A stretch of 64,000 nucleotides of DNA. It comes from an uncultured Dorea sp. GTDB lineage: Bacteria > Bacillota > Clostridia > Lachnospirales > Lachnospiraceae. Numbering within the stretch: position 1 is the first letter of the stretch; every line of letters starts with the position of its first letter. Made by a program: the position numbers and the translations under genes. The notes under the pieces were generated by a model that saw only the letters and a list, made by a program, of their open reading frames with translations, searched no databases and was not told the origin of the DNA. The stretch lies in the NCBI GenBank assembly GCA_947652615.1, contig CANTDX010000005.1, positions 7,333 to 71,332 of the forward strand, read 5' to 3'. Positions 31,625 to 54,746 of this stretch are shown one piece after another.

Positions 31625-31673
31625 TTCCATATTTCAACATCTTTTAACATCTTTTTTTCATTTTAACCACGAT

Positions 31674-31705
31674 AAAAGGGGGATCCCTTTCCGGTCTCCC
31701 CCTTT
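31674..31705 (-). terminator. rho-independent terminator after the Zn-ADH gene
   Basis: Minus-strand stem AAGGGGGA / TCCCCCTT with a 13-nt loop, followed by TTTAT. Confidence 0.55.
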
Positions 31706-31722
31706 GGCAATTCTCACATTAT

Positions 31723-32772: not shown

Positions 32773-32786
32773 CTTACTGTTCCTCC

Positions 32787-36897: not shown

Positions 36898-36961
36898 CCC
36901 ATCTCACCATATCACGAATTTGCAAAATGTTTTTCATGCTTTTTAACGAATTCACAAAATG

Positions 36962-37585
36962 TTATATTAGTTCCAGCGAAAGAAGTTCCTCAAAGGAATC
37001 TATCGTCACATAATCTCCCTCGACATCGCCGAATCCATATGACACATAGATCATCGGAATTCCTGCCCTGCGGCACGCGTCTGCATCTCCCTGGGTATCT
37101 CCCACATATACCGCTTCCGTAACCTGGTTGCGTTCCATGATAAGCCTGATATTCTCCGCCTTAAGCTTCCCCGTATCATCCGGACACAGATGATCTGCGA
37201 AATACTCTGACAGTCCTGTATTCTTAAGAAAGGCCTCGATATAACCTCCCTGGCAGTTGCTTACGATCAGCAGCGTAAACCTCTTACTCAGCTCGCGAAT
37301 CGTCTCCGGCACACCTTTGTAGATCTCGCAGGCAGCCGTCTCTACTCTGCTGTTCTCATATCGGAACAGATGCACCGATAACTGTTCCTGCTCCTGCCCA
37401 GTCAGCTCCGGGAACAGTGCTGCAACGATCTGGTTCATCGGCTTGCCGAATTCACGCACCAGATCCTCGCTTGTAATGATCCGGTCAAGCTGAGTGTGGT
37501 CTTTCACGGCCTGCGTCCATGCGATCGCTACCTGCTCGGTTGAGTTCCATAGTGTGCCGTCTACATCAAAAATAATTGCTTTCAT
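36962..37585 (-). CDS. HAD-family hydrolase (phosphatase)
   Basis: Motif I IIFDVDGTLW, motif II LIVSN, motif IV VGDTQGD. Confidence 0.85.
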   Translation of the reverse strand: MKAIIFDVDGTLWNSTEQVAIAWTQAVKDHTQLDRIITSEDLVREFGKPMNQIVAALFPELTGQEQEQLSVHLFRYENSRVETAACEIYKGVPETIRELSKRFTLLIVSNCQGGYIEAFLKNTGLSEYFADHLCPDDTGKLKAENIRLIMERNQVTEAVYVGDTQGDADACRRAGIPMIYVSYGFGDVEGDYVTIDSFEELLSLELI

Positions 37586-37702
37586 AGAGGGAATACCGCC
37601 TTTTCATTTGATATCTTTATCAATCTTTTCTATCTATTATAATAGTATCGGATACAATTATCAACCTTTTATAAAAGCATTTTAAAAAAGTATGGGATAA
37701 TC

Positions 37703-37741
37703 AAAAAGGTGTAAAGCCCTAAACAACTAAGACTTTACACC
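37703..37741 (-). terminator. rho-independent terminator closing the BMC operon
   Basis: 9-bp stem GGTGTAAAG / CTTTACACC. On the minus strand it is followed by TTTTT (A-run 37703-37707 on the plus strand). It is also flanked by TTTT on the plus strand, so it may act bidirectionally. Confidence 0.65.
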
Positions 37742-37824
37742 CTTTTGCATACTTATTTTACTTGCATCCCATCCCTCTTGGGTCAATCTGATAATGATAT
37801 TTGTTGCTTCTGACATCCGTATAA

Positions 37825-38808
37825 CTAAGCCTGCAGACAGGTAATCGCCACCACCCCTACAATATCTTCTGCACTGCATCCTCTGGACAGATCATTGACC
37901 GGCCTTCGAAGTCCCTGCGTGATCGGTCCATAGGCCTCTGCCTTCGCAAGTCTCTGCACCAGCTTATATCCGATATTTCCGCTGTTTAAATCCGGGAAAA
38001 CAAGCACATTCGCATTCCCTGCCACATTACTGCCCTTACATTTCATCTGCCCTACGGTCTCATCAACCGCCGCATCCAACTGTATTTCCCCGTCTATTTT
38101 CAGATTCGGATACCTCTCCTTAACCCTTTCAGCAGCGGATATGATTGGTTCAAGCCTCTTATTCTTAGCGCTTCCTTTCGTAGAATAAGACAACATTGCA
38201 ACAATCGGCTCCCGCTCTGTAAGCTGCTCAAAACTTCTGGCTGATGCCGCCGCAATATCCACAAGCTGATCTTCATTTGGGAATTCAACCAACCCGGAAT
38301 CCGCGAACAAAAATACGCCGTCGCTTCCATACTGACAATCCGGTACTACCATAAGAAAATATGCTGATACCGTCCGAATTCCTTCCGCTGTTTTAACAAT
38401 CTGGAGTGCAGGACGAAGGGTATCGCCCGTAGAATGACATGCGCCTGCCACCATTCCATCAACCTTATGATCTCTTACCAACATTGCACCATAATACAGC
38501 GGATCCATAAGCAGCTTTCTTGCCTGTTCCCGCGTCATCCCCTTATGTTTCCGAAGCTCATACAGCTCACCTGCCAAATCCTCGAAACCATCCTCATTCT
38601 TATAATCAAGAATCTCTACTCCTTGCTGCCTTAGCCCTTCTTCCCCCGGAATTCCTCTCACCCCGTCAGAAAGCAGAACAATCCGCGCAATTCCCTCTTC
38701 TGTAATCTTCCCGGCAGCCTGTGCTACTCTCTCATCATAACTTTCCGGAAGTACAATTACACATTTCTTCTGGGCTGCTCTTATCTTTACCTGTTCTATA
38801 AAATCCAT
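37825..38808 (-). CDS. pta: phosphate acetyl/acyl-transferase (PTA_PTB type)
   Basis: 327 aa with a full Pta pattern (IVLPESYDERV, GMVAGA.HSTGDTLRP, NVLVFPDLNSGNIGYK). Confidence 0.9.
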   Translation of the reverse strand: MDFIEQVKIRAAQKKCVIVLPESYDERVAQAAGKITEEGIARIVLLSDGVRGIPGEEGLRQQGVEILDYKNEDGFEDLAGELYELRKHKGMTREQARKLLMDPLYYGAMLVRDHKVDGMVAGACHSTGDTLRPALQIVKTAEGIRTVSAYFLMVVPDCQYGSDGVFLFADSGLVEFPNEDQLVDIAAASARSFEQLTEREPIVAMLSYSTKGSAKNKRLEPIISAAERVKERYPNLKIDGEIQLDAAVDETVGQMKCKGSNVAGNANVLVFPDLNSGNIGYKLVQRLAKAEAYGPITQGLRRPVNDLSRGCSAEDIVGVVAITCLQA

Positions 38809-38869
38809 TCTACCCTCTCCCTAATACAGCTTACAGAACTGCACAAGCTGCCAATCCCTCACCGAAAGA

Positions 38870-39151
38870 TCATTCGGATACATGAATCATATCTACCACT
38901 GCAATCACACATAGATCGATCGGACCCGGATGATCACATCTGGCAGCATATCTTGCTCCTTGGCCTTCCTGTATCACAAGAACAAGATCTCCGATTCCTG
39001 CATCACTGTCGGCACCATCAACCGCGATCATCTCTGGACCACAGAATTCACCATCTGCTCCAACCTGTTTTACGATCAGCAGTTTGTGCCCTTTATAATC
39101 TTCATGTTTCTGTGTGGAAATGACATTTCCTACTACTCTTGCTATCAACAT
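38870..39151 (-). CDS. BMC vertex protein (EutN/CcmL family, BMC-P) 1
   Basis: MLIARVVGNVISTQKHEDYKGHKLLIV is the canonical EutN/CcmL N-terminal pattern. 93 aa. Confidence 0.9.
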   Translation of the reverse strand: MLIARVVGNVISTQKHEDYKGHKLLIVKQVGADGEFCGPEMIAVDGADSDAGIGDLVLVIQEGQGARYAARCDHPGPIDLCVIAVVDMIHVSE

Positions 39152-39153
39152 AA

Positions 39154-39423
39154 CTAATATCCCGTGTACATACTGTCAATAATTGCCGTTATTCCTGCAT
39201 CACAGCAGGCTTCCGGATTTGGCAGACAAAAAGCGCCTTCTTTGCTCTTGGCATAGATTACCTTCTCCCCTACGCCGCTGCCGGCCGCATCTCCCGCCAC
39301 AATCGGAGACCCCTTGGCATTTCCCGCGGAATCAATCGGCTGTATCACCATTAATCGGACTCCGTTAAGCCGTTCATCCTTTCTTGTTGCCACTACCGTT
39401 CCGATAACCTTTGCACTATTCAT
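39154..39423 (-). CDS. BMC vertex protein (EutN/CcmL family, BMC-P) 2
   Basis: AKVIGTVVATRKDERLNGVRLMVIQP pattern. 89 aa. Confidence 0.9.
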   Translation of the reverse strand: MNSAKVIGTVVATRKDERLNGVRLMVIQPIDSAGNAKGSPIVAGDAAGSGVGEKVIYAKSKEGAFCLPNPEACCDAGITAIIDSMYTGY

Positions 39424-39731
39424 TCCGCCTCACCTTCCGAATATTTCTCAAATACTTTCCTGCCGCCTATATCTATATGATCAACCACTGCCATAATCGT
39501 TGCATCCACAGGCATATTGCTTGTCATTTCTGTCTGTCTGGCAGAACTTCCTCCTACTACCAGAACAATCTCCGATTCTCCTGCACCTACCGCATCAACG
39601 GCAACAACCGGTTTCCCTTCATTTTCCAGACTCAGCAGACTAACCGGCTGCACCACAAGCAGCTTCAGTCCTACCAATCTCTGTTCCTTACATGTGCACA
39701 CTGCACTTCCAATGATTTTCGCCGCATACAT
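39420..39731 (-). CDS. BMC vertex protein (EutN/CcmL family, BMC-P) 3
   Basis: AKIIGSAVCTCKEQRLVGLKLLVVQP pattern. 103 aa. 4-nt overlap with the next BMC-P gene. Confidence 0.9.
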   Translation of the reverse strand: MYAAKIIGSAVCTCKEQRLVGLKLLVVQPVSLLSLENEGKPVVAVDAVGAGESEIVLVVGGSSARQTEMTSNMPVDATIMAVVDHIDIGGRKVFEKYSEGEAE

Positions 39732-39838
39732 GAAATGTATCTTCCTCCAATCGCCCTATCATAAAGCTGCCCGCTTCTTTCCATACATATGCCATGAGGC
39801 GCGAATGAATCTTCAAACACGCCCCATAAGCATAATTT

Positions 39839-40693
39839 TTAATAATTATTTGCCACAACAATATCTACTTTTTTGGACGGGCATTTCTTTTTACAGTTGC
39901 CGCATCCTACACACTCATGCCCTGATTCTTTCTTACTGCCGTTGTCACCCGCTACAATAGAGATGCCATTGCTTGTCCCAATACGAGTGGCCCCTGCCTC
40001 TACCATCGCCATTGCTGTCTGATAATCCCGTACACCGCCGGAGGCTTTCACTCCCATATCCGGTCCGACTGTCTGTCTCATCAACCGGATATCTTCAACT
40101 GTCGCTCCTCCTGTCGAAAAACCTGTTGATGTCTTGACGAAATCTGCTCCTGCCATCTTCGCGATCGCACAGACCTTTACCTTCTCCTCATCTGTAAGAA
40201 GACACGTCTCAATTATGACTTTCACAAGCGCCTTACCGCGTGCTGCCGTAACGACATCTTCTATATCTTTCTTTACATATACCCAGTTTCCGGACTTCAC
40301 CTGTCCGACATTGATCACCATATCCACTTCTTCGGCACCCTTTTTGATACTGTCGATCGTCTCGAGAACCTTGGATTCTGTAGTAGTCGCCCCCAGAGGG
40401 AAGCCGATCACACAGCAGGTCTTAACACCTGAACCGGCAAGCTCCTTCGATGCAAGCGGAACATATCCTGGGTTTACACAAACTGAAGCAAACTGATTCT
40501 CTCTGGCTTCTGCACACAACTTCACAATCTGCTGTTCTTTGGCATCTGCCTTCAGTAATGTATGGTCAATATATTTTGCAAGATTTACTGCCGGACTGCT
40601 GCAAGTCTCTGCCGTATGGCTCACATCAGAAGAAACCTTATTATAAATCTCGTCTGTAATCTCCGCAATTAATTTTTCAATATCCATATTCAC
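39839..40693 (-). CDS. deoC: DeoC-family (deoxyribose-phosphate) aldolase with N- and C-terminal extensions
   Basis: Class I aldolase blocks [24 protein letters not shown] and the Schiff-base Lys in FVKTSTGF. It also carries about 35 extra N-terminal residues and a C-terminal tail with [12 protein letters not shown]. Confidence 0.85.
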
Positions 40694-40709
40694 TTACTCC
40701 CTTTATGTT

Positions 40710-41000
40710 TTATTTTTTGACCTGCTCCGGATGCGGAAGAATTCCTTCTACATCTGCGTGAGGACTTGCGATCACATGTACGGACACCAATTCTCCCACT
40801 CTCTTTGCTGCGGAAGCACCCGCTTCTACTGATGCCTTGACAGCACCTACATCTCCCCGCACCATTACAGTCACAAGACCTGAGCCAATCTGCTCCTTAC
40901 CGATCAACCTCACGTTTGCCGCTTTTACCATTGCGTCTGCTGCCTCGATCGATCCTACAAGACCTTTTGTCTCCACCATTCCTAATGCTTCGTTTGCCAT
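40710..41000 (-). CDS. BMC-H shell protein (PduA/EutM-like)
   Basis: [26 protein letters not shown] ... [22 protein letters not shown]. 96 aa. Confidence 0.95.
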
Positions 41001-41021
41001 GATTATTCCTCCTGATATTCT

Positions 41022-41309
41022 TTATTTAACTTTTGGTAAAATTCCTTCCACATCTGTATGTGGGCTTGCAATCACATGTACGGATACTAACTCTCCTACC
41101 CGTTTCACTGCTGCCGCTCCCGCTTCCACAGAAGCCTTGACAGCACCTACATCTCCTCGTACCATTACAGTTACCAGACCTGATCCGATTTTCTCCTTAC
41201 CGATCAGATGCACATTTGCAGCCTTAACCATTGCATCCGCTGCTTCAATCGCGCCTACCAGTCCCCTGGTCTCCACCATTCCCAATGCTTCTTTTTCCAT
41301 AATAGCCAC
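41022..41309 (-). CDS. BMC-H shell protein (PduA/EutM-like), tandem paralog
   Basis: About 90% identical to the neighbouring BMC-H over the core. 95 aa. Confidence 0.95.
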
Positions 41310-41350
41310 CTCTTTTATTAAAATTCTTTATGTTGTTACCTAATACACCT

Positions 41351-41905
41351 TTACATAAGCGCCTGATACATATCCTTATGCAGTGACGGAATCACTTCAA
41401 TATTTAATATCATTCCTTCTTTGCCAAGCTGCAGTTTCGCCGTATCTGCCGCAGTCGTTACGTCACTGATGCTTCCTGTAACAAGGACAAATGCCTTACC
41501 TCCAAGCCCTCTTCCTAGCCTGACTTCGATCAGATCGATCGCAGCGCTTTTAACTGCATAATCCGCTGCGAGAATCGCACTCGCCAGAGAATAAGTCTCT
41601 ATTACTCCCACGGCTTCTCTCTGTTCGGGCGCTGTCGATCTCATGATTGCAGGGATTACCTCCGGGGCAATGCTTGATATAATAATGGAATCCACAACCT
41701 TTTCCCTGCCCGCCGTCTTTCCTGTCGCAATTGCAGTCTCTACACTGGAAGTATCTCCTGCCACCAACAGCACATATTTCCCCGGGCAAACCGGCTGCGC
41801 CATCACAAGCTGCACATCTGCTGATTTTAACATCTCATCTCCAGCGACTACACCGGAAGCAACACTGTTTAATTCTAATGTTCCTATTGCCAGTCCCATA
41901 TTCAC
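41351..41905 (-). CDS. tandem-domain BMC-T shell protein (PduT-like)
   Basis: Two BMC domains in 184 aa. The first carries QPVCPGKY, which resembles the Fe-S-ligating Cys of PduT. Confidence 0.85.
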   Translation of the reverse strand: MNMGLAIGTLELNSVASGVVAGDEMLKSADVQLVMAQPVCPGKYVLLVAGDTSSVETAIATGKTAGREKVVDSIIISSIAPEVIPAIMRSTAPEQREAVGVIETYSLASAILAADYAVKSAAIDLIEVRLGRGLGGKAFVLVTGSISDVTTAADTAKLQLGKEGMILNIEVIPSLHKDMYQALM

Positions 41906-41910
41906 ACCTC

Positions 41911-43236
41911 CTACCCCTTCGTAATCTCAATATAATCTGAAGCCACCGCCGTAACTTTTCCCTTGATGGATGCATGTACAGGCGCCCCCAACGCTCCATC
42001 AGGAACCTGACCGATACATTGGCCTTTCTTGACCTTGTCGCCCTCTTTTACAATCGGCGTACACGGTGCACCAATATGCTGTTTCAGCAATATCCTTACC
42101 ATCTTGGGTGTCTGGATTGACTCAATATATTTGCTCTCTGTATCATACGGAGACAGGCCCATCCTCTGAATGACTCTGCCCGACGGCACCTTAGACTCAT
42201 TGCGGAACAGATTCACATTCTTCGGCTTCTGATTGCTCTTCACCTTCCTCGCCAGAAGTCCCTGCCTTACTGCCGAAATAAAACGGCTAGGTGCAAGTCC
42301 CATATTACATCCTACATAAGTACACAATCCACAATTGCAGCAACCAAGCGCAGCCTGTCCATCAGCCAGTATATCCGCATTATTCAAAGTAAGTGCCTGC
42401 ATGATCTTATGCGGCTGAACCCCCAAACCAAGATTGCTCCTGGGACAGATCAAAGTACAGTAATTGCATTGGCAACAGGCTGATTTGGCTATCTTAAGCT
42501 GATAGTTGAAATCCTCTGTCTTCTTAACGACTAACGGATGTTCCGAAGGAAATACAAGCACTCCGTTCGTAGTCTTTGTAACATATTCCTTCCGAGGATC
42601 TTCAGCCACACGCCCCATCAAAGGACCTCCCAGAACCACCGCATAATCTGAAACCATGACACCTCCTGCCAATTCCAATAGGCTTTCAATCGGCATTCCA
42701 ATCGGCACCTGTACCGTCATAGGTTCTTTTACCGCTCCTGCTACTGTCACCATTCGGCCGGTTACTGCCGTTCCCTGTACTGCCTCAGAGATGTGGAACA
42801 ACGTTTGTGCGTTTAATACAACACATCCAACCTTGATCGGAATCTCGCCTACCGGAACTACCCGCCCAGTCACTTCATATATAATCTGCTGCTCATCACC
42901 CGCCGGGTAATAATTGTCCAATAGATGAAGTGTAATATGTTCCTCCCCTTCTACCGCTCTCCGAAGTTCTTCTACAGCCTTCTTATTCTTATACTTAACG
43001 GCCAGGACCCCTTTTTCAGCACCAGTACATTCAAGAGCCGCCTTCATGCCTTCAACAATTATGTCTGCATTGTGCTCCATCAGATACTTGTCTGACTTGA
43101 TAATCGGCTCACATTCTGCGCAATTGGCTATGACTGTATCTGGAGTGCTCTTCAGCTTCGCATGTGTAGGGAACCCGGCTCCTCCTGCTCCAACCACTCC
43201 TGCCTGTTTTATTTTTTCCAATACCTGCTCTTTCAT
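41911..43236 (-). CDS. PduS/RnfC-like Fe-S flavoprotein
   Basis: GVVGAGGAGFPTHAKL nucleotide-binding block, an SLBB-like region, and two Cys clusters (CCQCNYCTLICP; CCNCGLCTYVGC). Start chosen at MKEQVL (ATG 43236, after GAGGTGG). Confidence 0.85.
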   Translation of the reverse strand: MKEQVLEKIKQAGVVGAGGAGFPTHAKLKSTPDTVIANCAECEPIIKSDKYLMEHNADIIVEGMKAALECTGAEKGVLAVKYKNKKAVEELRRAVEGEEHITLHLLDNYYPAGDEQQIIYEVTGRVVPVGEIPIKVGCVVLNAQTLFHISEAVQGTAVTGRMVTVAGAVKEPMTVQVPIGMPIESLLELAGGVMVSDYAVVLGGPLMGRVAEDPRKEYVTKTTNGVLVFPSEHPLVVKKTEDFNYQLKIAKSACCQCNYCTLICPRSNLGLGVQPHKIMQALTLNNADILADGQAALGCCNCGLCTYVGCNMGLAPSRFISAVRQGLLARKVKSNQKPKNVNLFRNESKVPSGRVIQRMGLSPYDTESKYIESIQTPKMVRILLKQHIGAPCTPIVKEGDKVKKGQCIGQVPDGALGAPVHASIKGKVTAVASDYIEITKG

Positions 43237-43247
43237 AAGCCACCTCG

Positions 43248-44702
43248 CTATATAATTCTGAATGCTCCATGAAGGGTACATCTGCGGGATTTGGTAAAAT
43301 TCTTTGCTGAAGTCAGCCCTTCTCCGGTTGGAGTTGCGATGGTAAGGGTCGTATAACCTTCTCCATCGATTCCAAGTCCAGCATAGGACGGTGCATTTTT
43401 CACAAATATTGTTGTATCAACTGCACGTGCCATCTTCGTCAGATTGTTCACATTCTCCGAGTGCATCATTGCCGTATGATGACAGCCGTTCTCTGCAATT
43501 ACTGCTTTCTCAATTGCCTCATCGACTGTCGCTACCCTTGTGACCGGAACCACCGGCATCAGCATCTCAGTCATGACCAACGGATGCTCAAAAGGTACCT
43601 CAGCAATCACCGCTTTTACCTCTCGGTTCACGATTACACCCGATTCCCGTAGGATATAAGAAGCATCCCGTCCTACATATTTCTTGTTCGGTGCATATTT
43701 ACCATCCTTCGTCTCGACCATAACTGTAGCAACAACCGCTTGAAGCTCCCTGTCGTCTGCGAGATAGGCACCCTCTTTTTGCATCTGTGCAATCAGCTCA
43801 TCCGCTACACAATCTTCAACCAAGATCTCTTTCTCCGCTATACACAGAATACAATTCTCATAATGAATACCGCTGACAATATCCCGCGCTGCCCGTCTGA
43901 TATCCGCTGTTCGGTCCACTACCACAGGCGGATTACCCGGACCTGCCGCGATACACTTCTTTCCCGTCTTCATCGCAACTCTTACAACTGCTTCTCCGCC
44001 TGTTACAACTAAGAGTTTTACGACCGGACTAGACATGATCACTGCACTGGTGTCCATTGTAGGCTTTTCCGGTGCACACAGAAGATTATCTGGTCCTCCC
44101 GCTGCCACGATTGCCTGGTTCATAACCCTGATGGTTTCTATCGATGCTTTCCTGGCTCCCGGATGCGGATTAAACACAACTGCATTTCCTCCTGCAACCA
44201 TCCCAATTCCGTTATTGATCACCGTTGCCGTAGGATTCGTGGACGGTGTGATCGCACCGATTACACCAAAAGGCGCCATCTCCGTCAACATCAATCCGTC
44301 ATCCCCGCTGCATGCCAATGTCTTCAAATCTTCTGTGCCAGGAGTCTTATTGGCTGCCAGAAGATTCTTTGCAACCTTATCCTCTACATGACCGTATCCA
44401 GTCTCCTCATATGCAATCTCAGCAAGCTTTCTTGCATTCGCCCTGGCTGCCCCCCGCATCGCATCTATGAATCTGCCGCGATCCTCCAGCGTATATTCCA
44501 TAAGATTCCTCTGTGCTATGGCTGCCGCCTGGATCGCCGCCCTGACATCTACGAATATCCCATGTCCGCCTGCCGTCATATCCAACGACAGAGTGCGATC
44601 TGTATCATTCCTATTCACATTACCCACGTCACTCACAGGTTCTTTCAAATCCTGTTGAAGGTCCATTATATACTGTGATATCTGCGAGGTTGATATTCCC
44701 AT
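43248..44702 (-). CDS. CoA-acylating aldehyde dehydrogenase (EutE/PduP-like)
   Basis: 484 aa with an ALDH fold pattern and catalytic Cys region ENCILCIAEKE. An N-terminal extension of about 45 aa contains an amphipathic helix (SQISQYIMDLQQDL). Confidence 0.85.
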   Translation of the reverse strand: MGISTSQISQYIMDLQQDLKEPVSDVGNVNRNDTDRTLSLDMTAGGHGIFVDVRAAIQAAAIAQRNLMEYTLEDRGRFIDAMRGAARANARKLAEIAYEETGYGHVEDKVAKNLLAANKTPGTEDLKTLACSGDDGLMLTEMAPFGVIGAITPSTNPTATVINNGIGMVAGGNAVVFNPHPGARKASIETIRVMNQAIVAAGGPDNLLCAPEKPTMDTSAVIMSSPVVKLLVVTGGEAVVRVAMKTGKKCIAAGPGNPPVVVDRTADIRRAARDIVSGIHYENCILCIAEKEILVEDCVADELIAQMQKEGAYLADDRELQAVVATVMVETKDGKYAPNKKYVGRDASYILRESGVIVNREVKAVIAEVPFEHPLVMTEMLMPVVPVTRVATVDEAIEKAVIAENGCHHTAMMHSENVNNLTKMARAVDTTIFVKNAPSYAGLGIDGEGYTTLTIATPTGEGLTSAKNFTKSRRCTLHGAFRII

Positions 44703-44721
44703 CTTTCAAACCCCCTTTTCT

Positions 44722-45429
44722 TTATCTATTTATTATCTGTATATTCAACTCTTTCGCCCGTTCCAACGCTAACGGTGTAACTACCGCGTTCCTGGCTGCA
44801 TGAATCTGCCTGCATCCTCTCGCATAGAACTCTTCCACTCTGCTTTCTGTAATAAAATCTGCCTGCTGCTGTTCCTTCATTGAAACCATTTCCCCAAACT
44901 CGGGCGTCAGACCCGCAAATGAAACTCTCATATCCCAGAGGTCGCAGAGCATATCTTTCACAGATTTGCCAAATCTCCCCTCCGGTAACACTCCGGTCAC
45001 ATAAGGCAGCCGAACGTTCACTTCTTTCCCCACCATCAAAAAATACAAAGCAATTCGGATAAACAGGCTGCTTTCTTCTCCGTCCTTAAGCATTCTCAGA
45101 AAATTTAGCGACGGAGCATATATCTCAAGCTTCTGATACCTTGGCAGAATACTTAATACGTGGCTGATATCTTTCTGATTTTCCTTACAAAATACTCTGA
45201 TCCCTAAAACTGTATTCTCTTGCCCGCTTCTGCCTTCATAGAATAAGTCCAAAGCATCAAGTTCACCATATAATCTATATTCTTCAATCACTTCGTCCAG
45301 TCCGATCGGATATTCAGGTATCAGGAACAACACCCTTCCGTCTTCCTTCTCCCGCTCTTTTCTGCGAATGTAATACATCAATACACGCCTAACCAGGGTA
45401 CTGATCTCATCCCTGCTGATCTTCATCAT
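44722..45429 (-). CDS. BMC-associated protein of unknown function
   Basis: 235 aa. ATGA overlap with the upstream TIM gene. N-terminal amphipathic helix (RDEISTLVRRVLMYY). The C-terminal roughly 45 aa (DFITESRVEEF...AVVTPLALERAKELNIQI) resemble the short N-terminal module of EutT-type adenosyltransferases as I recall it. Confidence 0.6.
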   Translation of the reverse strand: MMKISRDEISTLVRRVLMYYIRRKEREKEDGRVLFLIPEYPIGLDEVIEEYRLYGELDALDLFYEGRSGQENTVLGIRVFCKENQKDISHVLSILPRYQKLEIYAPSLNFLRMLKDGEESSLFIRIALYFLMVGKEVNVRLPYVTGVLPEGRFGKSVKDMLCDLWDMRVSFAGLTPEFGEMVSMKEQQQADFITESRVEEFYARGCRQIHAARNAVVTPLALERAKELNIQIINR

Positions 45430-46253
45430 GATCCATCCACTCTCAACAATCTCAGAATATTCATGAAATTCTCTGCTTTCAGGCTAGCGCCTCCAATCAG
45501 AAAACCGTCTACAAATTGTACTGAAGCAATGTCTTTTACATTCTTCTCATTCACACTGCCGCCATAGAGTATCCTAGATGCCCGCTCACTGATTCCCGTA
45601 TATGATACCAGAAGTTCATGAATAAACCGATGCGTCTCCCCGATCTGATCAAGCCCGGGTATCACACCTGTCCCAATCGCCCATACCGGTTCATAGGCTA
45701 TTATACAGTCTGAAAGCGCGTCTCCGATCTCCTGTCTGACCGCATCCAACTGAACTTTTAGTACCTCGTGATATCTGTTACCCTGCCGTTCCTCCAATGT
45801 CTCTCCGATACAGACCACCGGCCTGATATGATATCTCAGTGCTGCCGCCGTCTTCCTGGCTACGATTTCCGGAGTCTCTCCATAATAATTCCGGCGTTCA
45901 GAATGCCCGGCCAACACATAGGAGCATCCTAAATCTGCAAGCATCGCCGCACTCACTTCCCCGGTATACGCTCCCTTCTCTTCCTTTGCAACATCCTGCG
46001 CCCCATATGTTATCTTATCGTATCGAAGCATTTCCTGAAAAATCGGCAAATACGGGTATGGTGGGAAAATCACTGTCTTCAGATAATCTGGGATCTTCTC
46101 TTCTTTCACCTTTTCGATAAATCTTCTAGTCTCCTTGGCCGACATATTCATCTTCCAGTTTGCCGCAACGATATATTCTTTCTGCTTCCTGCTGCTGAAT
46201 TTCGATTCTATATGCTTCCGTACCAGACTTTCAATTTCTCTCTTTTCCACCAT
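45426..46253 (-). CDS. triose-phosphate isomerase family protein with N-terminal extension
   Basis: TIM catalytic blocks AANWKMN, GHSERR, YEPVWAIGTG and GGASL, preceded by about 25 extra residues (EIESLVRKHIESKF). Confidence 0.85.
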   Translation of the reverse strand: MVEKREIESLVRKHIESKFSSRKQKEYIVAANWKMNMSAKETRRFIEKVKEEKIPDYLKTVIFPPYPYLPIFQEMLRYDKITYGAQDVAKEEKGAYTGEVSAAMLADLGCSYVLAGHSERRNYYGETPEIVARKTAAALRYHIRPVVCIGETLEERQGNRYHEVLKVQLDAVRQEIGDALSDCIIAYEPVWAIGTGVIPGLDQIGETHRFIHELLVSYTGISERASRILYGGSVNEKNVKDIASVQFVDGFLIGGASLKAENFMNILRLLRVDGS

Positions 46254-46275
46254 GTCACTTCCTTTTGCTGCTTCC

Positions 46276-47343
46276 CTATATGAGTTCCGGCAAGAATAAT
46301 ACCTTCGTAAATACCTCTGTGCGGTTAAACATCATATCAAACACTTCCTTACAGTCTTCAAGCCTTACTCTGTGAGTAATCAACGGCTCCACAATGATCT
46401 TACCAAGATTCATATATTCAAGACCGCTCATCCACTCATTGATCGGCAGCGGATTAATGGATGAATTCCAACTCCCATGTATGGTAAGCTCCCCTCTCAA
46501 GATGGCTGCAATTGCCTTATTAGGGAATGCCACATCATCATATGTAATACCGCCGTATACAACTTCTCCGTTCTTCTTACAAGCCTCAACCGCCTGTACA
46601 TGTGTGATCTTGTTCCCCGCAAATTCAATTGCAATATCTACACCCTCACCGCCGGTCAGTTCCTTTACAGCCTTAACTGCATCCACCTTCATGCCGTTAA
46701 TACCGTCCGTTGCCCCAAGCTCTTTTGCAAGCCTAAGTTTCTCATCTGCAACATCCACGGCGATAACCCTGGTACATCCAAGCTCCCTCAACCACTGAAC
46801 ACAGAGATAGCCAATGGCTCCCAGCCCGAATACGGCAGCCGATTTGCCGGCTTCCATCCTGACTTTGCGCACCGCATGGAGTGCTACGGAGATCGGATCT
46901 GTGAGAGCGCCCATCTCATAGCTTACATTCTGCGGCAGCTTAAGGCAGTTCTCAGATTCAACAACAATATATTCCGCCATTGCCCCATCTCTTCTGGAAC
47001 CATAATAATCATAATGGTCACACAGATGAGACTGGCCGACTTTACAAAACTGGCACGTACCGCATGGAATCAGCGGCATCACGGATACCCTGTCACCCGG
47101 CTTCAAATTGCCGCGCACATTCGTGCCGCATTCTACAATCTGTCCGGAAAACTCATGTCCGATCGTGGTAGGAAAGTGATAGGTCCCTTTCACCATAACC
47201 CGCGGAATATCTGAGCCGCACACTCCGCAGCTTTTTACCTTTATCAATACCTGCGTATCTTTCTCGATCTGCGGAATGTCAACTTCCACACAACGGATAT
47301 CCTTTGGCGCAAACAAGCGTACCGCTCTCATTTTTTGTGCCAT
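46276..47343 (-). CDS. Zn-dependent alcohol dehydrogenase (galactitol-1-phosphate 5-dehydrogenase-like)
   Basis: MDR motifs CGVCGSDIPR and GHEFSG, a structural Zn cluster CGTCQFCKVGQSHLC, and Rossmann motif GLGAIG. Confidence 0.85.
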   Translation of the reverse strand: MAQKMRAVRLFAPKDIRCVEVDIPQIEKDTQVLIKVKSCGVCGSDIPRVMVKGTYHFPTTIGHEFSGQIVECGTNVRGNLKPGDRVSVMPLIPCGTCQFCKVGQSHLCDHYDYYGSRRDGAMAEYIVVESENCLKLPQNVSYEMGALTDPISVALHAVRKVRMEAGKSAAVFGLGAIGYLCVQWLRELGCTRVIAVDVADEKLRLAKELGATDGINGMKVDAVKAVKELTGGEGVDIAIEFAGNKITHVQAVEACKKNGEVVYGGITYDDVAFPNKAIAAILRGELTIHGSWNSSINPLPINEWMSGLEYMNLGKIIVEPLITHRVRLEDCKEVFDMMFNRTEVFTKVLFLPELI

Positions 47344-47449
47344 ATTATCGCCTCCTTAATGAACTTTTGATACATATATAGTAAATTATGTTCCTATATA
47401 GATATTAGCATTTCCTACCGCCAATGTCAATCCCGAAATTATATGTATC

Positions 47450-48958
47450 CTATCCATCTTCCCGCATCATTTTTTTCAAACTTTTATATAATCTAAGATA
47501 TTTTTTAAACACTTCTTCATATTGCCGATGTGCATCCATGTCAGGAGATATTGTAGAGTCCTCCACTACCATAACATCTGCTGCCTCTTCAAATGTATCG
47601 TAGTGTCTCCCTCTTGCTGCTGCCACAACACAACAGCCTAATACTCCTGCCTGACTCTCTCTCGTGACAACAATTGGCTTCCCTGTCACATCCGAAATAA
47701 TCTGAAGCCATCCTCTGTCCTTGGTAACTCCGCCGCACGCCACAATCACGTCAATGCTGCAGCCCTGCTCCTCAAAATTCTTTACAATATTATGTGTGCC
47801 AAATGCAACCGACTCCAGGATCGCCCTATATATATGCTTCCATGTATGCTTCATTGTAAGTCCGTAGATAACTCCCTTTGAATAGGAATCTTTATAAGGT
47901 GTACGATTTCCCTGGAAATAATCCAGTACAACCAATCCCTCCGCACCGATATCCGTATCTTTTACGCACTCCATCAACTTTGCATAGACATTATCTTTTG
48001 TCCCCTCGATATGGAAATTTTTACGGAACCAGTTCACTAAGCCCGATGCCGATATCTGTCCTCCCTCCAATAGCCACATATTATCAATAATAGCGCTGTC
48101 ATAAGGCCCCCAGACACCTTTAATATCCGGTTTGTCTTTAACCAGACACAAATGCACAAAGCTCGTTCCCATAGTAACCGCCAGTTTCTTCTCCCTGATC
48201 GCATTCAAACCAAACATTGCCATATGTGCGTCTATACAGCCCTGGACAATTTTCATCTTAGGGCTAATACCGAATTTCTCTGCAAGCTTCTCGGATATAT
48301 ACCCGACCTCCTGCCCTATTTTAATCACATTGGTAATCAGTTTATCTTCATAATCCTCCAAACCGATCTTTTCAAAATATTCTCTGCTGAATCCTCCTTC
48401 CTCAAGGACATAGTTCCACTTACATGTCGTATTACATATGGATGCCGCCAGATTTCCAGATAATTTATAATTAATCCAATCCAACTGTTCTATAATCTTC
48501 CAGCACGAATCATATAGTTCTCTGCGTTCTCTCTTAATCCAAAGGACCTTAGGAATCAGCCATTCCGCCGACACCTCTTCTCCGCAATATTTCAGCCGTT
48601 CATACTTGCCCTGGTTAATCTCCTCAGCTATATCTTTACTGCGGATATCCATCCACATCATAGCATTCCCCATTGGCACTCCATCCCTATCCACCACTAC
48701 AGCCGTGGAAGATGTGGCACAAACCGCACAGGCAGTCATAGCCTCCTTCTGTCCGTCATCCAGATCCCCGCAGCATTCGCCAAATGTTTCCAGAATTCCT
48801 TCCCACCATACATTAGGATCCTGTTCTGCCCATCCCGGTGCAGGATATTCTGTATCCCATTTTTTCTCATGGACGGTAAGAACTCTCCCATTTTCATCCA
48901 CGATTCCTATCCGAACTCCTTGCGTCCCCGTATCAATCCCCGCAAACAATTTCTTCAT
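47450..48958 (-). CDS. FGGY-family carbohydrate kinase (pentulose/ribulokinase-like)
   Basis: N-terminal GIDTGTQGVR phosphate-1 motif. 502 aa with FGGY C-terminal blocks (GGVTKDRGWLQIISDV). AGGAGG RBS. Confidence 0.85.
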   Translation of the reverse strand: MKKLFAGIDTGTQGVRIGIVDENGRVLTVHEKKWDTEYPAPGWAEQDPNVWWEGILETFGECCGDLDDGQKEAMTACAVCATSSTAVVVDRDGVPMGNAMMWMDIRSKDIAEEINQGKYERLKYCGEEVSAEWLIPKVLWIKRERRELYDSCWKIIEQLDWINYKLSGNLAASICNTTCKWNYVLEEGGFSREYFEKIGLEDYEDKLITNVIKIGQEVGYISEKLAEKFGISPKMKIVQGCIDAHMAMFGLNAIREKKLAVTMGTSFVHLCLVKDKPDIKGVWGPYDSAIIDNMWLLEGGQISASGLVNWFRKNFHIEGTKDNVYAKLMECVKDTDIGAEGLVVLDYFQGNRTPYKDSYSKGVIYGLTMKHTWKHIYRAILESVAFGTHNIVKNFEEQGCSIDVIVACGGVTKDRGWLQIISDVTGKPIVVTRESQAGVLGCCVVAAARGRHYDTFEEAADVMVVEDSTISPDMDAHRQYEEVFKKYLRLYKSLKKMMREDG

Positions 48959-48979
48959 ACTTGCCTCCTACTCTAATAC

Positions 48980-49008
48980 AAAAAAGGAGCAGACTGTACT
49001 TCTGCCCC
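48980..49008 (-). terminator. intrinsic terminator / attenuator hairpin directly upstream of the FGGY kinase RBS
   Basis: Minus-strand GGGGCAGA-AGTACAG-TCTGCTCC followed by TTTTTT. It lies 22 nt upstream of the kinase ATG. Confidence 0.6.
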
Positions 49009-49082
49009 TTTCATTCCCGCCGGCAACGAGCCAAGCGGGCATGCTTGCATGCACATTTGGCGGCTGCAGCGGGCGCTTGCCG

Positions 49083-49574
49083 CTAAATTGTAACAAATAT
49101 CTCCTTAGCTGACATATCAACAGAAAACAAATCATTGTGATATACCCGTTCCGGCAACACAATCAGAACATTTACTTCGTTGTTATGCAATGGAAGCGGC
49201 ATATAATGCCATACTCCAGGATTAAGCTGAATAATTACATTCTTCGGAACAATGAATGCTTCCACCTCTTTTTCTGACGGCTCTTGTGAACTTCCCGCCT
49301 TTGCAAGAAAAAGAACCGCATCGTCATCCAATGGCATCATCACCTCCGATGCATAATTATGATACTCCAATGCCTGTAAACGAAATCTTTCATCCTTCTT
49401 AACAGAAAGCGTCGATATACCCAGAACCGGGGCTTGTGTTGCATATCTTACACAGTCCCGATAGAATGTAAATGCATCGGAACCAAAACCAGCCCTGCTC
49501 TTATCCAGCATATCGCCAAAATGCCCGTATTCTGCAAATCCATCTTTTGTAAGATACTTTACTTTTATCTCCAT
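49083..49574 (-). CDS. ureidoglycolate-lyase-like / cupin-fold protein
   Basis: About 163 aa. LTKDGFAEYG near the N-terminus and overall length resemble the ureidoglycolate lyase family. Start chosen at MEIKVKY (ATG 49574, GGGGAGGG upstream). Confidence 0.5.
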   Translation of the reverse strand: MEIKVKYLTKDGFAEYGHFGDMLDKSRAGFGSDAFTFYRDCVRYATQAPVLGISTLSVKKDERFRLQALEYHNYASEVMMPLDDDAVLFLAKAGSSQEPSEKEVEAFIVPKNVIIQLNPGVWHYMPLPLHNNEVNVLIVLPERVYHNDLFSVDMSAKEIFVTI

Positions 49575-49594
49575 GATCATCCCTCCCCAATTCA

Positions 49595-50674
49595 TTAAGG
49601 TCTGATAATAACCTTGAGCGAACCCTCGCCCTTTGAGTTCTGCTCGAAGGCATCCTGCCAGTGATCCAGATCAAAGGAATGCGTCACAACTCCGTCGGTA
49701 TAGATTGTATTATCTGCAATCCATTCGGTTACGACATCAAAACAGTATGGCCCTAAGTGAGATCCCAAAAGATCAAGTTCTTTCCCATCACCAATCACAG
49801 ACCAGTCCACAGATACTTTCTGCCCAAATACGCTGAATTCAATGAATCTGCCTAATTTCCGGATCGAATCTAACCCCTGCTGAACACTGGACGGATGGCC
49901 TGTTGCCTCTACATAGATATCGCACCCATAACCCTTTGTAAGCTTTTTCACCTCTTCTTCGATATTGCATTTAGACGGGTTCAAGATTATATCTGCACCA
50001 AATTTCTTCGCAATCTCCAACCTGCTGTCAATCATATCAACAGCAACCAGAGTCTTTGGATTCCGCAGCCGCGCATAATTAACCATGGCCAGCCCAAGTG
50101 TTCCTACCCCAGAGATTACCACAACATCTGTATTTGTAATCTGCGCTCTGTCAATCGCATGCTTTGCACAGCTATATGGCTCGATCAGAATCGCTTTCTC
50201 CAGTTCCAGATCCTTTGGAATCTGATAAATTCTCGTCTTGGCAGGTAAAACCATGTACTCCGCCATTGCACCATTCACATGCTCACGGAATCCAAATATA
50301 TCCGCTTTATCACACATCCAATATTTTCCCGTCTGACAGAACATGCATTCTCCACAAGGAACAATCTGCTCTCCTGTAACACGGTCCCCTATCTTAACAT
50401 CTCCCTGGTAATGATCACTTAACTCAACAACTTCTCCTATAAACTCATGTCCGGGAATAAACGGGGTTTTTACCCAGGGTTCTGTCGTTCCGTCTCCCCA
50501 ATATCCTTCGGCACCATGCCAATTCTTAATATCACTTGCACAGACTCCACACGCTTCTACCCGGATCAATACTTCTCCATCTTTTAGATCTGGCACCGGA
50601 TACGCTTCTTCAAGCACATATTTTCCTTTTTCATAAACTACCAATGCCTTCATTGATTTCACTTTTTTCGCCAT
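49595..50674 (-). CDS. Zn-dependent alcohol/polyol dehydrogenase
   Basis: CGVCASDIKN, GHEFIGEV, and structural Zn cluster CGECMFCQTGKYWMC. Start chosen at MAKKVKS (ATG 50674, 7 nt after GGAGG). Confidence 0.85.
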   Translation of the reverse strand: MAKKVKSMKALVVYEKGKYVLEEAYPVPDLKDGEVLIRVEACGVCASDIKNWHGAEGYWGDGTTEPWVKTPFIPGHEFIGEVVELSDHYQGDVKIGDRVTGEQIVPCGECMFCQTGKYWMCDKADIFGFREHVNGAMAEYMVLPAKTRIYQIPKDLELEKAILIEPYSCAKHAIDRAQITNTDVVVISGVGTLGLAMVNYARLRNPKTLVAVDMIDSRLEIAKKFGADIILNPSKCNIEEEVKKLTKGYGCDIYVEATGHPSSVQQGLDSIRKLGRFIEFSVFGQKVSVDWSVIGDGKELDLLGSHLGPYCFDVVTEWIADNTIYTDGVVTHSFDLDHWQDAFEQNSKGEGSLKVIIRP

Positions 50675-50700
50675 TTCCATACCTCCATTAACCAACATAA

Positions 50701-53161: not shown

Positions 53162-53263
53162 GGTTCCAACTCCTTGTATACTTTCATGTTTTTTTAAAGG
53201 GGATGTTTGATATAGAAACATCCCCTTCTAAAACATTTATTTTACTAATTCTGCTGCCAGAAC

Positions 53264-54379: not shown

Positions 54380-54746
54380 TCTTTGCTCCTCCTTGTTTAA
54401 TTGGCAATGCATGCATTTGTTTCTTCTCATGCTAATTTTTCCATGAGTAACATATGTTCATATATGAATAACTTTTGTAATCAAATCTTATCATATTTAG
54501 TTCCTTTTGTCAACACAAACAAATAATTTACTTTTTTTTTGCTATTTTTATATATTTTACCCATTGCATATTCATCCCCTCATCTTTTATTCAGTTTTAA
54601 ATGCTAACATACAATCACTGCATATGCTACATATATACCCGTGTAAATATCTGGTAAATCAACAGAAGGACACTCTCAAAAAGCACACAAAAAAAGTGCA
54701 AGTTTGTCTAACCTGCACTTCATTCTCAAACCTATTTACCCTGTTC

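Follow-up and report, generated by a model that had tools for sequence, protein, structure and literature searches.

Sugar-phosphate-utilisation (SPU) loci, a class of bacterial microcompartment (BMC) loci, were defined in 2014 and divided into seven subtypes in the 2021 catalogue (Sutter et al. 2021). They are among the most widespread microcompartment types, and a native substrate, an inducer or a phenotype has been reported for none of them. Here we describe a locus of this class on the minus strand of a 64,000-nucleotide stretch of DNA from an uncultured Dorea sp. (Lachnospiraceae; GenBank assembly GCA_947652615.1, contig CANTDX010000005.1, positions 7,333 to 71,332). This stretch is called the window, and all positions are counted in it. 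A first-pass annotation, made from the sequence of the window, had called the region 37825–48958 an SPU-like operon driven by a DeoC-family aldolase. The interest of the locus is in two branch-wide features that we did not find described in searchable papers: a ferredoxin-type tail on the signature aldolase, and a module of two zinc-dependent alcohol dehydrogenases (Zn-ADHs) and an FGGY kinase.

The closest described loci are those of subtype SPU4, which contain an aldehyde dehydrogenase (AldDH), pfam01791/pfam02502 proteins, a phosphotransacylase (PTAC) and a pfam00121 triosephosphate isomerase (TIM) (Sutter et al. 2021, Supplementary Data 2). Nearly all of them also encode an eut_hyp (TIGR02536) protein, which is related to pfam02441 flavoproteins and has a 30–40-residue N-terminal encapsulation peptide (EP). 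Encapsulation peptides have been published for the SPU4 AldDH and, as an N-terminal feature, for the deoxyribose-phosphate aldolases (DERAs) of SPU loci. The SPU4 shell has a BMC-P triplet, which is a hallmark of SPU loci, and two similar BMC-H proteins; BMC-T^dp is missing, and a PduS-associated BMC-T^s is present in 14 of 33 loci. RpiB (pfam02502) is found in 18 of the 29 curated SPU4 loci and is missing in 11, and it is absent in SPU5. The hosts are mostly Bacillales and Clostridiales (Sutter et al. 2021), and SPU4 has been reported in gut Dorea, Clostridium and Anaerotruncus.

Some parts of related compartments have been studied directly. The SPU6 DERA from Chloroflexi was purified, is active on 2-deoxyribose-5-phosphate (dR5P) in vitro and forms complexes with an inactive RpiB-like protein (Dwyer, Sutter and Kerfeld 2024, PMC11585597). 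A 2025 preprint (PMC12747264) describes the reconstitution of archaeal SPU-like shells, along with a Hodarchaeales DERA fused to a flavoprotein domain. The earlier statement that no SPU compartment had been characterised biochemically is thus outdated. The MNdh/BMC-T^SE module, which holds FMN and three 4Fe-4S clusters, oxidises NADH and exports electrons through the shell, and 97% of the loci that encode MNdh have it next to BMC-T (Sutter et al. 2024, PNAS). For Atribacteria, a compartment running in the reductive, condensing direction was proposed by Nobu et al. 2016, as described in PMC6281690.

The locus is predicted to encode an SPU4-type metabolosome

Open reading frames (ORFs) were called on the window, and families were assigned by Pfam and NCBIfam profile searches. 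Related loci and contigs retrieved for comparison are labelled with L-numbers (L001, L004 and so on). All 14 minus-strand ORFs of the first-pass annotation were found at the coordinates listed there, and the profile searches upheld their family assignments. Based on gene content, the locus is predicted to be an SPU4-type catabolic BMC (metabolosome) of gut Lachnospiraceae, another member of a catalogued type. The more cautious label "SPU-like" can be dropped, as the locus fits the catalogued SPU4 almost line by line.

The shell genes (two BMC-H, one BMC-T and three BMC-P) are located within 3 kb. The two BMC-H hexamer genes (40710–41000 and 41022–41309, single-domain PF00936) encode proteins 90% identical to each other, and the three BMC-P genes (38870–39151, 39154–39423 and 39420–39731, PF03319 each) encode EutN/CcmL pentamer proteins sharing 34–36% identity. 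The BMC-T gene (41351–41905) encodes a PduT-like tandem-domain protein of the BMC-T^SE kind, with two PF00936 domains and the pore motif CPGK (VCPGKY in the translation). Only 6 bp separate it from the gene of a PduS homologue (MNdh; 41911–43281, likely start 43236) with Complex1_51K, SLBB, Fer4_17 and RnfC_N domains. Gene callers moved the start of the latter to MKEQ... (441 aa, the same length as in L090), and its 34-bp overlap with the AldDH gene is then gone. The pair resembles the MNdh/BMC-T^SE module in having a four-domain PduS homologue beside a PduT-like BMC-T with CP(G/S)K, in a locus without a B12-dependent enzyme. It differs in that the signature enzyme here bears an extra Fer4 repeat and is accompanied by a flavoprotein-like cargo protein.

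The AldDH (43248–44702, PF00171) is of the CoA-acylating type (NF011927, 631 bits, cut-off 403) and is aligned from residue 35, leaving an N-terminal extension of about 35 aa. TIM (45426–46253; TIGR00419, 168 bits, cut-off 131) carries the canonical NWKMN, GHSERR and YEPVWAIGTG motifs, and its PF00121 match begins at residue 28 after an extension of about 27 aa. The phosphotransacetylase Pta (37825–38808, PF01515; NF007233, 378 bits, cut-off 310) scores above two NCBIfam cut-offs and has no terminal extension. Gene content and family scores therefore support the earlier proposal of an SPU-type compartment with a DeoC-family signature aldolase, in which an aldehyde passes to acyl-CoA and then acyl-phosphate. 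Acetaldehyde-trapping AldDH and a Pta-type PF01515 PTAC are also found in EUT1 of Salmonella and E. coli, and SPU AldDHs except that of SPU6 share one main branch of the tree of AldDHs with EUT1. However, the B12-dependent signature enzyme EutBC and the Fe-ADH EutG, which recycles NAD+ in EUT1, are not present here. EutBC, PduCDE, a glycyl-radical enzyme and a class II aldolase were all missing among the ORFs of 35.7–63.3 kb, so no signature enzyme places the locus in the Eut, Pdu, GRM or PVM types.

The 235-aa protein (44722–45429), left as an unknown in the first-pass annotation, indeed has no Pfam match, either alone or across 13 family members. A word-based homologue search found only 13 proteins. 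Its C-terminus matched TIGR02536 with E = 3.7e-5 and 23 bits, far below the cut-off. An AlphaFold2 (AF2) model (pLDDT 73) has an N-terminal helix at residues 6–29, which is of the encapsulation type, and the best Foldseek matches in the PDB were the FMN proteins DmrB, UbiX and EpiD (E ~1e-4). Members of the family are also encoded in L001, L004, L007, L008 and L096–L107. Because the weak NCBIfam match, the fold search and the published SPU4 description agree, this is the eut_hyp protein of SPU4. Its C-terminal motif of about 41 residues (ITE..V..Y..G....VVTPLALERAKELNI; window 44734–44856) recurs with 41% identity as the C-terminal extension of a PduL of Christensenella (L010:939–1799), which suggests a small module common to cargo proteins.

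The likeness to SPU4 thus covers AldDH, DERA and the eut_hyp protein, each with an N-terminal EP, as well as TIM, PTAC, the BMC-P triplet, two similar BMC-H, the lack of BMC-T^dp, a PduS-associated BMC-T^s and a host among gut Clostridiales. There are two differences. The window has no RpiB, whereas the relatives L007 and L008 have RpiB between BMC-P genes; and its PTAC is of the Pta type without an extension, whereas the SPU4 text gives PduL (pfam06130/PF06130) with an EP. Homologues of RpiB, PduL and GlpK were not found in the window by tblastn (RpiB query from L007), and no acetate kinase was found among the 50 window ORFs scanned against Pfam; the absence of RpiB and acetate kinase noted before holds for the window. 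In the relatives, PduL-type PTAC is encoded in L004 and L010, and the loci of L001, L007, L008, L093 and L094 end with Pta.

The signature aldolase is predicted to be a canonical DERA

The aldolase gene (39839–40693, PF01791) matches the deoC equivalog TIGR00126 with 295 bits (cut-off 117). Gene callers moved its start two codons in, to an ATG (282 aa). The whole core aligns with E. coli DERA, and D124, K187 and K216 align with its D102, K167 and K201. The GG and GTS phosphate-site motifs and the terminal Tyr are kept, and models of LacD or FbaB type did not match the window aldolase. Among the matches listed in a genome-contig scan with the DERA alignment, which were mostly housekeeping DERAs and missed the Lachnospiraceae, its identity to the housekeeping enzymes of Bacillus, Streptococcus and Paenibacillus is 60–70%. 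The enzyme is accordingly predicted from its sequence to be a canonical DERA. The trapped aldehyde would therefore be acetaldehyde and the triose glyceraldehyde-3-phosphate (G3P). A kinase and a dehydrogenase cannot make a 2-deoxy-aldose-phosphate from an ordinary polyol or ketose, so the generic polyol or ketose substrate assumed in the first-pass annotation is unlikely.

The DERA has an N-terminal extension of 37 residues before the profile start, which is lacking in P0051 and in housekeeping DERAs. Residues 3–22 (40628–40687), which contain a conserved stretch, are read as an amphipathic helix, presumably an encapsulation peptide, and the AF2 model (core mean pLDDT 82) places a helix at residues 5–22. 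The SPU6 DERA is likewise BMC-associated, with an N-terminal helical extension and the conserved D/K/K. In contrast, its extension has 70 residues, it has an RpiB-like partner, and its locus lacks PduS.

The gene neighbours of a relative also fit a DERA. On a Dorea-like contig (L009, 8474–10741), a DERA whose core is 84% identical to that of the window (aligned over 74% of the query) lacks both terminal extensions and has genes for a Bmp-type nucleoside transporter, a nucleoside hydrolase and a purine nucleoside phosphorylase as neighbours. Next to this DERA is a fragment of Pta (68 aa), and 4 kb away there is a SorC regulator that shares 77% identity with the one in the window. L009 looks like a remnant or a recombinant of an SPU locus.

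Many related loci (L004:9131–9877, L012/L013, L019, L099–L103; L008:10001–10753) encode a second DERA paralogue, which has an encapsulation-type N-terminus and the catalytic Lys and Asp, and has neither the Cys4 tail described below nor the terminal Tyr. Its identity is 32–39% in PduL-type loci and 71% in L008. The window has the tail-bearing copy only.

A reading of the locus as lsr-like (AI-2), which was prompted by the SorC regulator, the ribose-type importer, the FGGY kinase and PF01791, was rejected. The kinase scored 154 bits against the LsrK cut-off of 528, the regulator matched DeoR better than LsrR, and the aldolase belongs to the deoC rather than the LsrF type.

A ferredoxin-type tail on the DERA accompanies the electron-export pair

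The C-terminus of the window DERA contains a ferredoxin-type CxxCGxCxxxCP repeat (39842–39913), followed by the terminal Tyr after 11–12 residues. The consensus after the barrel, C-x2-C-G-x-C-x3(-5)-C-P, was found in 13 of 15 and then in 18 of 18 aligned homologues, all ending in Tyr, and C261, C264, G265, C267, C271, P272 and Y284 were invariant in the 18 sequences. Among the 120 best homologue clusters, 89 had the tail; all 89 ended in Tyr, with 11 or 12 residues between CP and the terminus in every case. When ten diverse tails were scanned alone, only Fer4/4Fe-4S Pfam families matched, with PF00037 above threshold in 4 of 10. The genome-contig scan listed tail-bearing DERA loci in Christensenellales, Oscillospiraceae and Treponema, and tail-less BMC DERAs too; the Chloroflexi BMC-linked DERAs sampled (L080, L081) have no Cys4 tail, unlike the window DERA.

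In E. coli DERA the terminal Tyr is on a disordered tail, which in the closed state reaches into the active site. The window DERA has the Cys4 repeat within the equivalent of this Tyr-bearing segment, just before the terminal Tyr. Compared with ferredoxins, the tail resembles half of a clostridial 2x[4Fe-4S] ferredoxin, and the second motif is absent from the chain. Since each chain has one Cys4 motif, a complete 2x[4Fe-4S] unit needs two chains or another partner, and the two tails of a DERA dimer could complete such a unit.

The occurrence of the tail follows that of PduS. Among 26 non-redundant shell-linked loci, tailed DERAs were found with PduS in 12 and without visible PduS in 2 (a satellite locus and a 4-kb contig), and tail-less DERAs with PduS in 2 and without in 10 (Fisher p = 0.001, no phylogenetic correction). 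L114 was tallied as PduS not seen, though its contig begins with the C-terminal end of a PduS gene. In loci with readable flanks, the tail was only found alongside the PduS/PduT pair. From these motifs and matches the tail probably binds an Fe-S cluster.

Some observations count against this assignment. The window tail itself scored below threshold for PF00037 (18.5 versus 21.1), and the AF2 pLDDT of the tail was below 50, a low value that is expected when no cofactor is modelled. Tail-less DERAs are also found in some PduS-containing SPU loci (L089, L113, L114). The Cys4 tail could instead bind zinc or form disulfides.

Neither the SPU6 paper (PMC11585597) nor the MNdh paper (Sutter et al. 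2024, PNAS) mentions a DERA tail, and no mention of the Fer4 tail or of the Zn-ADH/FGGY partners was found in the searchable published SPU4 descriptions, so both are apparently undescribed. A parallel is the Hodarchaeales system, which has an SPU-type core (DERA, AldDH, MNdh and a T^s with CPGK) and a DERA joined to a redox-cofactor domain. There, however, the fusion is an N-terminal flavoprotein domain, whereas the window DERA has a ferredoxin-type repeat of 24 residues at its C-terminus, and a gene of its own encodes the flavoprotein-like protein. If the tail binds a cluster, this would be the first BMC signature aldolase wired into the redox conduit of the shell, in parallel to the Asgard flavoprotein-DERA fusion. 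The co-occurrence of the tail with the electron-export pair is a testable handle.

Two Zn-ADHs are conserved partners of DERA

ZnADH1 (46276–47343) is GatD-like and belongs to the polyol-dehydrogenase branch; its best model, galactitol-1-phosphate 5-dehydrogenase, scored 268 bits, below the cut-off, so it is described as a polyol(-phosphate)-dehydrogenase-type enzyme. FGGY1 (47450–48958) was nearest to ribulokinase and pentulokinase models, with scores below the cut-offs. Further upstream are a SorC-family regulator nearest to Bacillus DeoR (54747–55721; NF053881, 297 bits, cut-off 420; LsrR 161 bits) and, by profile searches, a group at 55890–63262 consisting of the xylulokinase-like FGGY2, a GFO/IDH/MocA oxidoreductase, a second ribose-type ABC importer and, 15 kb upstream of ZnADH1, ZnADH3 (62216–63262), whose orthologues lie beside DERA in relatives.

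The neighbourhoods of homologues of DERA, the eut_hyp protein and ZnADH1 were compared, with identities given to the window proteins. In Lachnospiraceae L001 the order is FGGY1 (79%), FGGY2 (77%), ZnADH3 (67%), ZnADH1 (88%), TIM and core, and in both L001 and L003 FGGY1, FGGY2 and ZnADH3 directly precede ZnADH1-TIM with no importers between. Two metagenome loci have DERA, BMC-H, ZnADH1 (42%), VOC and ZnADH3 (45%) (L004), and SorC, GlpK, DERA, ZnADH1, ZnADH3 and shell genes (L102). In Christensenella (L010), SorC, ZnADH1 and ZnADH3 precede DERA, which is followed by a PGM/PMM-family mutase gene. ZnADH1 (69%) is between DERA and the BMC-P genes in Defluviitaleaceae (L113), and ends the series RpiB, DERA, PduL, ZnADH1 (61%) in an Atribacteraceae SPU locus (L114). 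Two operons have no shell genes: that of Ruminiclostridium (L112), with ABC, DERA, ZnADH1 (61%), ZnADH3 (50%), GlpK-like, SDR, AraA-like, SorC and VOC genes, and that of a Clostridiales member (L115), with DERA, ZnADH1 (63%) and ZnADH3 (51%).

Altogether, ZnADH1/ZnADH3 orthologues were found beside DERA in five different arrangements that include a shell and in two operons that lack one. Consistently, 4 of 5 ZnADH1 homologues picked blind to context (61–69% identity) adjoin deoC, and the neighbours of the fifth (L116) are a ZnADH3-like gene, the gene of a SorC regulator and xylA/xylB-like genes. L043 (Propionispora) was not counted as a shell-less ZnADH1-DERA pair; its Zn-ADH, probably GatD, belongs to a PTS cluster for tagatose/galactitol. 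These gene neighbourhoods indicate that ZnADH1 and ZnADH3 are genuine, previously unremarked partners of DERA in Clostridia and Atribacteria, with or without a shell. The claim that the kinase and the dehydrogenase belong to the pathway is accordingly strengthened for the Zn-ADH; these enzymes may act upstream of the aldolase or downstream of it. The chemistry of the conserved DERA/Zn-ADH/Zn-ADH/FGGY module, also in shell-less operons, is a testable handle.

An FGGY kinase and a DeoR-like/SorC-family regulator usually accompany the Zn-ADH/DERA sets. SorC-family regulators are found with DERA in L004, L006, L010, L102, L112 and L113, and sugar ABC importers adjoin in the window, L112, L113, L114 and L102. 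The kinase slot is filled by non-orthologous FGGY proteins: FGGY1 and FGGY2 in Lachnospiraceae, and elsewhere a protein matching the GlpK model (TIGR01311, 673–681 bits, cut-off 590), with GlpK as the best PDB hits. The GlpK-like genes beside DERA are L004:734–2233, L006:8312–9811, those of L098 and L101–L103, and L112:10157–11663. In all 8 copies retrieved, from five or six distinct loci, NTYGT(A/S)(L/M)AL stands where canonical enzymes have NTYGTG(G/C)F. The replaced Phe corresponds to E. coli GlpK Phe270, which packs against glycerol; the substrate pocket may therefore be enlarged, and the DERA-linked GlpK-like kinases may not be glycerol kinases despite the equivalog score.

DERA under a SorC-family DeoR-like regulator, with sugar uptake genes nearby, is also found in the dra-nupC-pdp operon of Bacillus subtilis and the enterobacterial deoK operons. 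These operons are not known to have a shell or a Zn-ADH pair, and their kinase, where there is one, is the ribokinase-family DeoK and not FGGY.

Transcription units and extent of the locus

The locus is closed by an intrinsic terminator 3' of Pta (37702–37747, minus strand), in which a hairpin with a stem of 21 bp is followed by a U-run (-29.7 kcal/mol, z = -7.9), in agreement with the first-pass annotation. The single operon proposed there is less certain. A promoter-like site is present 5' of ZnADH1 (47402–47430; TTGACA-17-TAATAT, extended TG, 10/12, by consensus match only), and a computed terminator-like hairpin is just upstream of FGGY1 (48982–49012); yet a metatranscriptome contig (47167–47740) bridges the FGGY1-ZnADH1 junction.

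Upstream of FGGY1, also on the minus strand, are genes for a cupin (ureidoglycolate-lyase/DUF4867-like), ZnADH2 and a ribose-type ABC importer (permease, ATPase and substrate-binding protein) (49083–54430), in the same order in L090 and L093, followed by another promoter-like site by consensus match (54485–54513). The best PDB match of the substrate-binding protein was 4RY9, whose ligand we assume to be a hexitol; no specificity is claimed for this protein. Because ZnADH1 and ZnADH3 are conserved DERA partners, the locus, as a functional unit, probably runs on to about 63.3 kb. The genes of 37825–48958 had been placed correctly, and the span itself is probably too narrow, as conserved partners are encoded upstream of 48958.

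Short contigs from two mouse-gut or faecal metatranscriptome libraries covered DERA, BMC-H, BMC-T, ZnADH1, FGGY1, ZnADH2, the substrate-binding protein and FGGY2. This contig-level signal, in which DNA carry-over is possible, suggests that the locus is transcribed in vivo. Runs flagged "RNA?" over 36500–56400 showed flat coverage and contigs of about 100 kb, as DNA does, and were left out of the expression evidence.

Between the cupin gene and FGGY1 there is a 66-bp GC-rich insertion (49015–49082), which is polymorphic among strains: some contigs skip exactly 66 bp, and L090 is without it. The insertion is hairpin-forming, and metagenome depth there was 4–10 times that of the flanks, with many differing loose ends. 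No second copy was found in the window or in the retrieved loci. It looks as if the insertion were a small repeat dispersed in other genomes.

Proposed pathway and alternative explanations

The explanation that we consider best as a whole, and probable, is an SPU4 metabolosome that cleaves dR5P, traps acetaldehyde, exports electrons by MNdh, has a DERA with a redox-type tail and is fed by a cytosolic importer/kinase/Zn-ADH arm. Four proteins (DERA, AldDH, TIM and the eut_hyp protein) have N-terminal amphipathic extensions of the lumen-targeting type by sequence and comparison. From the families, extensions and motifs found in the window we infer the substrate, the direction of flux and the encapsulation. 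dR5P would enter the shell and be cleaved by DERA to acetaldehyde and G3P. AldDH would trap acetaldehyde as acetyl-CoA, yielding NADH, and Pta would convert acetyl-CoA to acetyl-phosphate, from which an acetate kinase encoded elsewhere could make ATP. The encapsulated TIM would pull G3P to dihydroxyacetone phosphate (DHAP), and this draw would help the thermodynamically unfavourable aldol cleavage. Since no alcohol dehydrogenase bears an encapsulation peptide, NAD+ would be regenerated by MNdh, with electrons passing through its two Fe-S clusters and the BMC-T pore cluster to a cytosolic acceptor. The DERA tail may join this lumenal electron relay, or may tie DERA activity to the cluster or redox state.

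The weakest step is the cytosolic arm, in which the DeoR-like regulator, the ribose-type importers, the FGGY kinases, ZnADH1 and ZnADH3 would act in the same pathway. The Zn-ADH/FGGY module could convert an imported 2-deoxy-pentose or 2-deoxy-pentitol to dR5P, so that the order "phosphorylate, then oxidise" would be kept for 2-deoxy substrates only. This upstream role is weakly favoured over a downstream one because importers are adjacent, non-orthologous kinases have displaced one another, the pocket of GlpK is altered and the regulator resembles DeoR. The regulator and the importers should also point to the inducer.

A number of points weigh against this explanation. Pta has no encapsulation extension, which leaves the site of CoA recycling in question. 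We know of no pathway in which Zn-ADHs lead from a sugar or polyol to dR5P, and the polyol-dehydrogenase branch to which ZnADH1 belongs normally yields 2-ketoses, not aldehydes. The L115 operon has no kinase or transporter nearby, one ZnADH1 homologue (L116) is found with xylA/xylB and no DERA, and L007 has the same core order with no kinase or Zn-ADH nearby. The window is moreover a sugar/polyol island with five Zn-ADHs, so the adjacency of FGGY1, ZnADH2, the cupin gene and the importers may be coincidental.

This last point leads to a narrower pathway of 37.8–47.3 kb only, from ZnADH1 to Pta, with FGGY1, the cupin, ZnADH2, both importers, the GFO oxidoreductase and FGGY2 as unrelated island neighbours, which is possible and somewhat doubtful. 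Such a boundary would fit the polymorphic insertion and the terminator-like hairpin that precede FGGY1 and the promoter-like site 5' of ZnADH1. It would also fit L094, whose upstream cassette differs while ZnADH1 stays 98% identical, L007, which is without all these genes, and the further polyol clusters in the window. On the other hand, FGGY1, FGGY2 and ZnADH3 directly precede ZnADH1-TIM in L001/L003 without intervening importers, many gene orders combine DERA with an FGGY kinase and a SorC-family regulator, and the metatranscriptome contig crosses the FGGY1-ZnADH1 junction. Slightly less likely, and the main alternative for the Zn-ADH/FGGY module, is that the dehydrogenases and the kinase act downstream, on three-carbon and aldehyde products. 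In one version ZnADH1 would reduce TIM-made DHAP to glycerol-3-phosphate with reducing equivalents from acetaldehyde, making dR5P fermentation redox-neutral, and ZnADH3 would reduce escaped acetaldehyde or glyceraldehyde. Another version has DERA cleaving unphosphorylated deoxyribose, with glyceraldehyde passing through glycerol, glycerol-3-phosphate and DHAP to G3P. The family regiochemistry of ZnADH1 suits glycerol-3-phosphate to DHAP, the kinase beside DERA in the non-Lachnospiraceae clade scores as glycerol kinase (673–681 bits against the TIGR01311 cut-off of 590), and TIM is encoded in the locus. The Zn-ADHs of L004 and L112 both have a VOC/glyoxalase-like gene beside them, Pta is followed in the window by the gene of a HAD phosphatase, and the three-gene DERA-ZnADH1-ZnADH3 operon of L115 would need no transporter. 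However, Lachnospiraceae loci are without GlpK and have ribulokinase-like and xylulokinase-like kinases instead, and the GlpK-like kinases share an altered motif at the presumed substrate-contact position (E. coli Phe270). GlpK also works from glycerol to glycerol-3-phosphate, opposite to a reductive sink, and the intact phosphate-site motifs of DERA together with the encapsulation extension of TIM speak for phosphorylated trioses inside the shell.

Two other explanations change the chemistry of the compartment itself. It is very improbable that it runs as an NADH sink in the reductive, condensing direction, from acetyl-phosphate through acetyl-CoA to acetaldehyde, which DERA would condense with G3P to dR5P. 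Such a model is published for Atribacteria (PMC6281690), and a ZnADH1 orthologue is present in the Atribacteraceae SPU locus L114. Glycerol kinase, polyol-phosphate dehydrogenase and TIM could supply G3P from glycerol. It is also general knowledge that the DERA equilibrium favours condensation. Nevertheless, dR5P would have no evident fate, MNdh/BMC-T^SE is characterised as NADH-oxidising and electron-exporting, and the Pta/AldDH pair is the standard oxidative metabolosome core. The gut setting, the DeoR-like repressor, the importers and the nucleoside genes near close DERA relatives suit catabolism. Scarcely credible is the pathway of the first-pass annotation, in which a kinase and a dehydrogenase act in turn on a generic, non-deoxy polyol or ketose, and a member of the DeoC family that is no true DERA cleaves a ketose or tetrulose phosphate to triose phosphate and an aldehyde other than acetaldehyde. 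Polyol-type kinases, dehydrogenases and importers are indeed present, and PF01791 is generally known to hold LacD-, FbaB- and LsrF-type enzymes as well. Set against these are the deoC equivalog score (295 versus 117 bits), the 60–70% identity to housekeeping DERAs among the matches listed, the retained D/K/K and terminal Tyr, the alignment of the whole core with E. coli DERA and the lack of a LacD/FbaB-type match.

The catabolic dR5P pathway can also be extended to a more daring proposal for the PduS branch of SPU4, which we think is unlikely as a whole. In this proposal paired half-ferredoxin tails of DERA would hold Fe-S clusters that either relay electrons from MNdh or the flavoprotein-like cargo to the BMC-T pore, or gate catalysis through the terminal Tyr, so that cleavage would occur only in the assembled, reduced compartment. 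At the same time, the feed would be imported free 2-deoxy-pentose or 2-deoxy-pentitol, not nucleotide-derived dR5P, and would enter through the undescribed module of FGGY and two Zn-dehydrogenases, which also exists without a shell.

Occurrence and neighbouring genes

Near-identical copies of the locus were found in mouse-gut metagenomes and in two mouse-gut metagenome-assembled genomes. The DERA homologues at 70–93% identity were from Lachnospiraceae, namely Extibacter muris (74%), Dorea, Mediterraneibacter and Eubacterium, and the Lachnospiraceae genome AP025573.1 (4.16-Mb contig) is a further relative carrying a related locus. Named or fully sequenced relatives such as Extibacter muris and AP025573.1 could give a tractable SPU model.

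The window contains five Zn-ADHs and two FGGY kinases. Directly after Pta there is a HAD phosphatase gene. Downstream of the locus, a sugar/polyol cluster (28544–33959) encodes a ribose-type permease, an SDR, a fourth polyol-type Zn-ADH (31723–32772) and a ROK protein. A mannoside/N-glycan utilisation block (10641–27294) encodes a GH2 beta-mannosidase-like protein (10641–13091) and a GH38 alpha-mannosidase (24055–27294), together with a DUF4432 protein, a CUT1 ABC importer and an AraC-type two-component pair. Amid this almost all-minus stretch, one plus-strand gene (34129–35718) encodes an AAA_35 ATPase with a weak C-terminal PD-(D/E)XK nuclease match; the local GC skew is near zero, and the gene is kept at the same position in L090.

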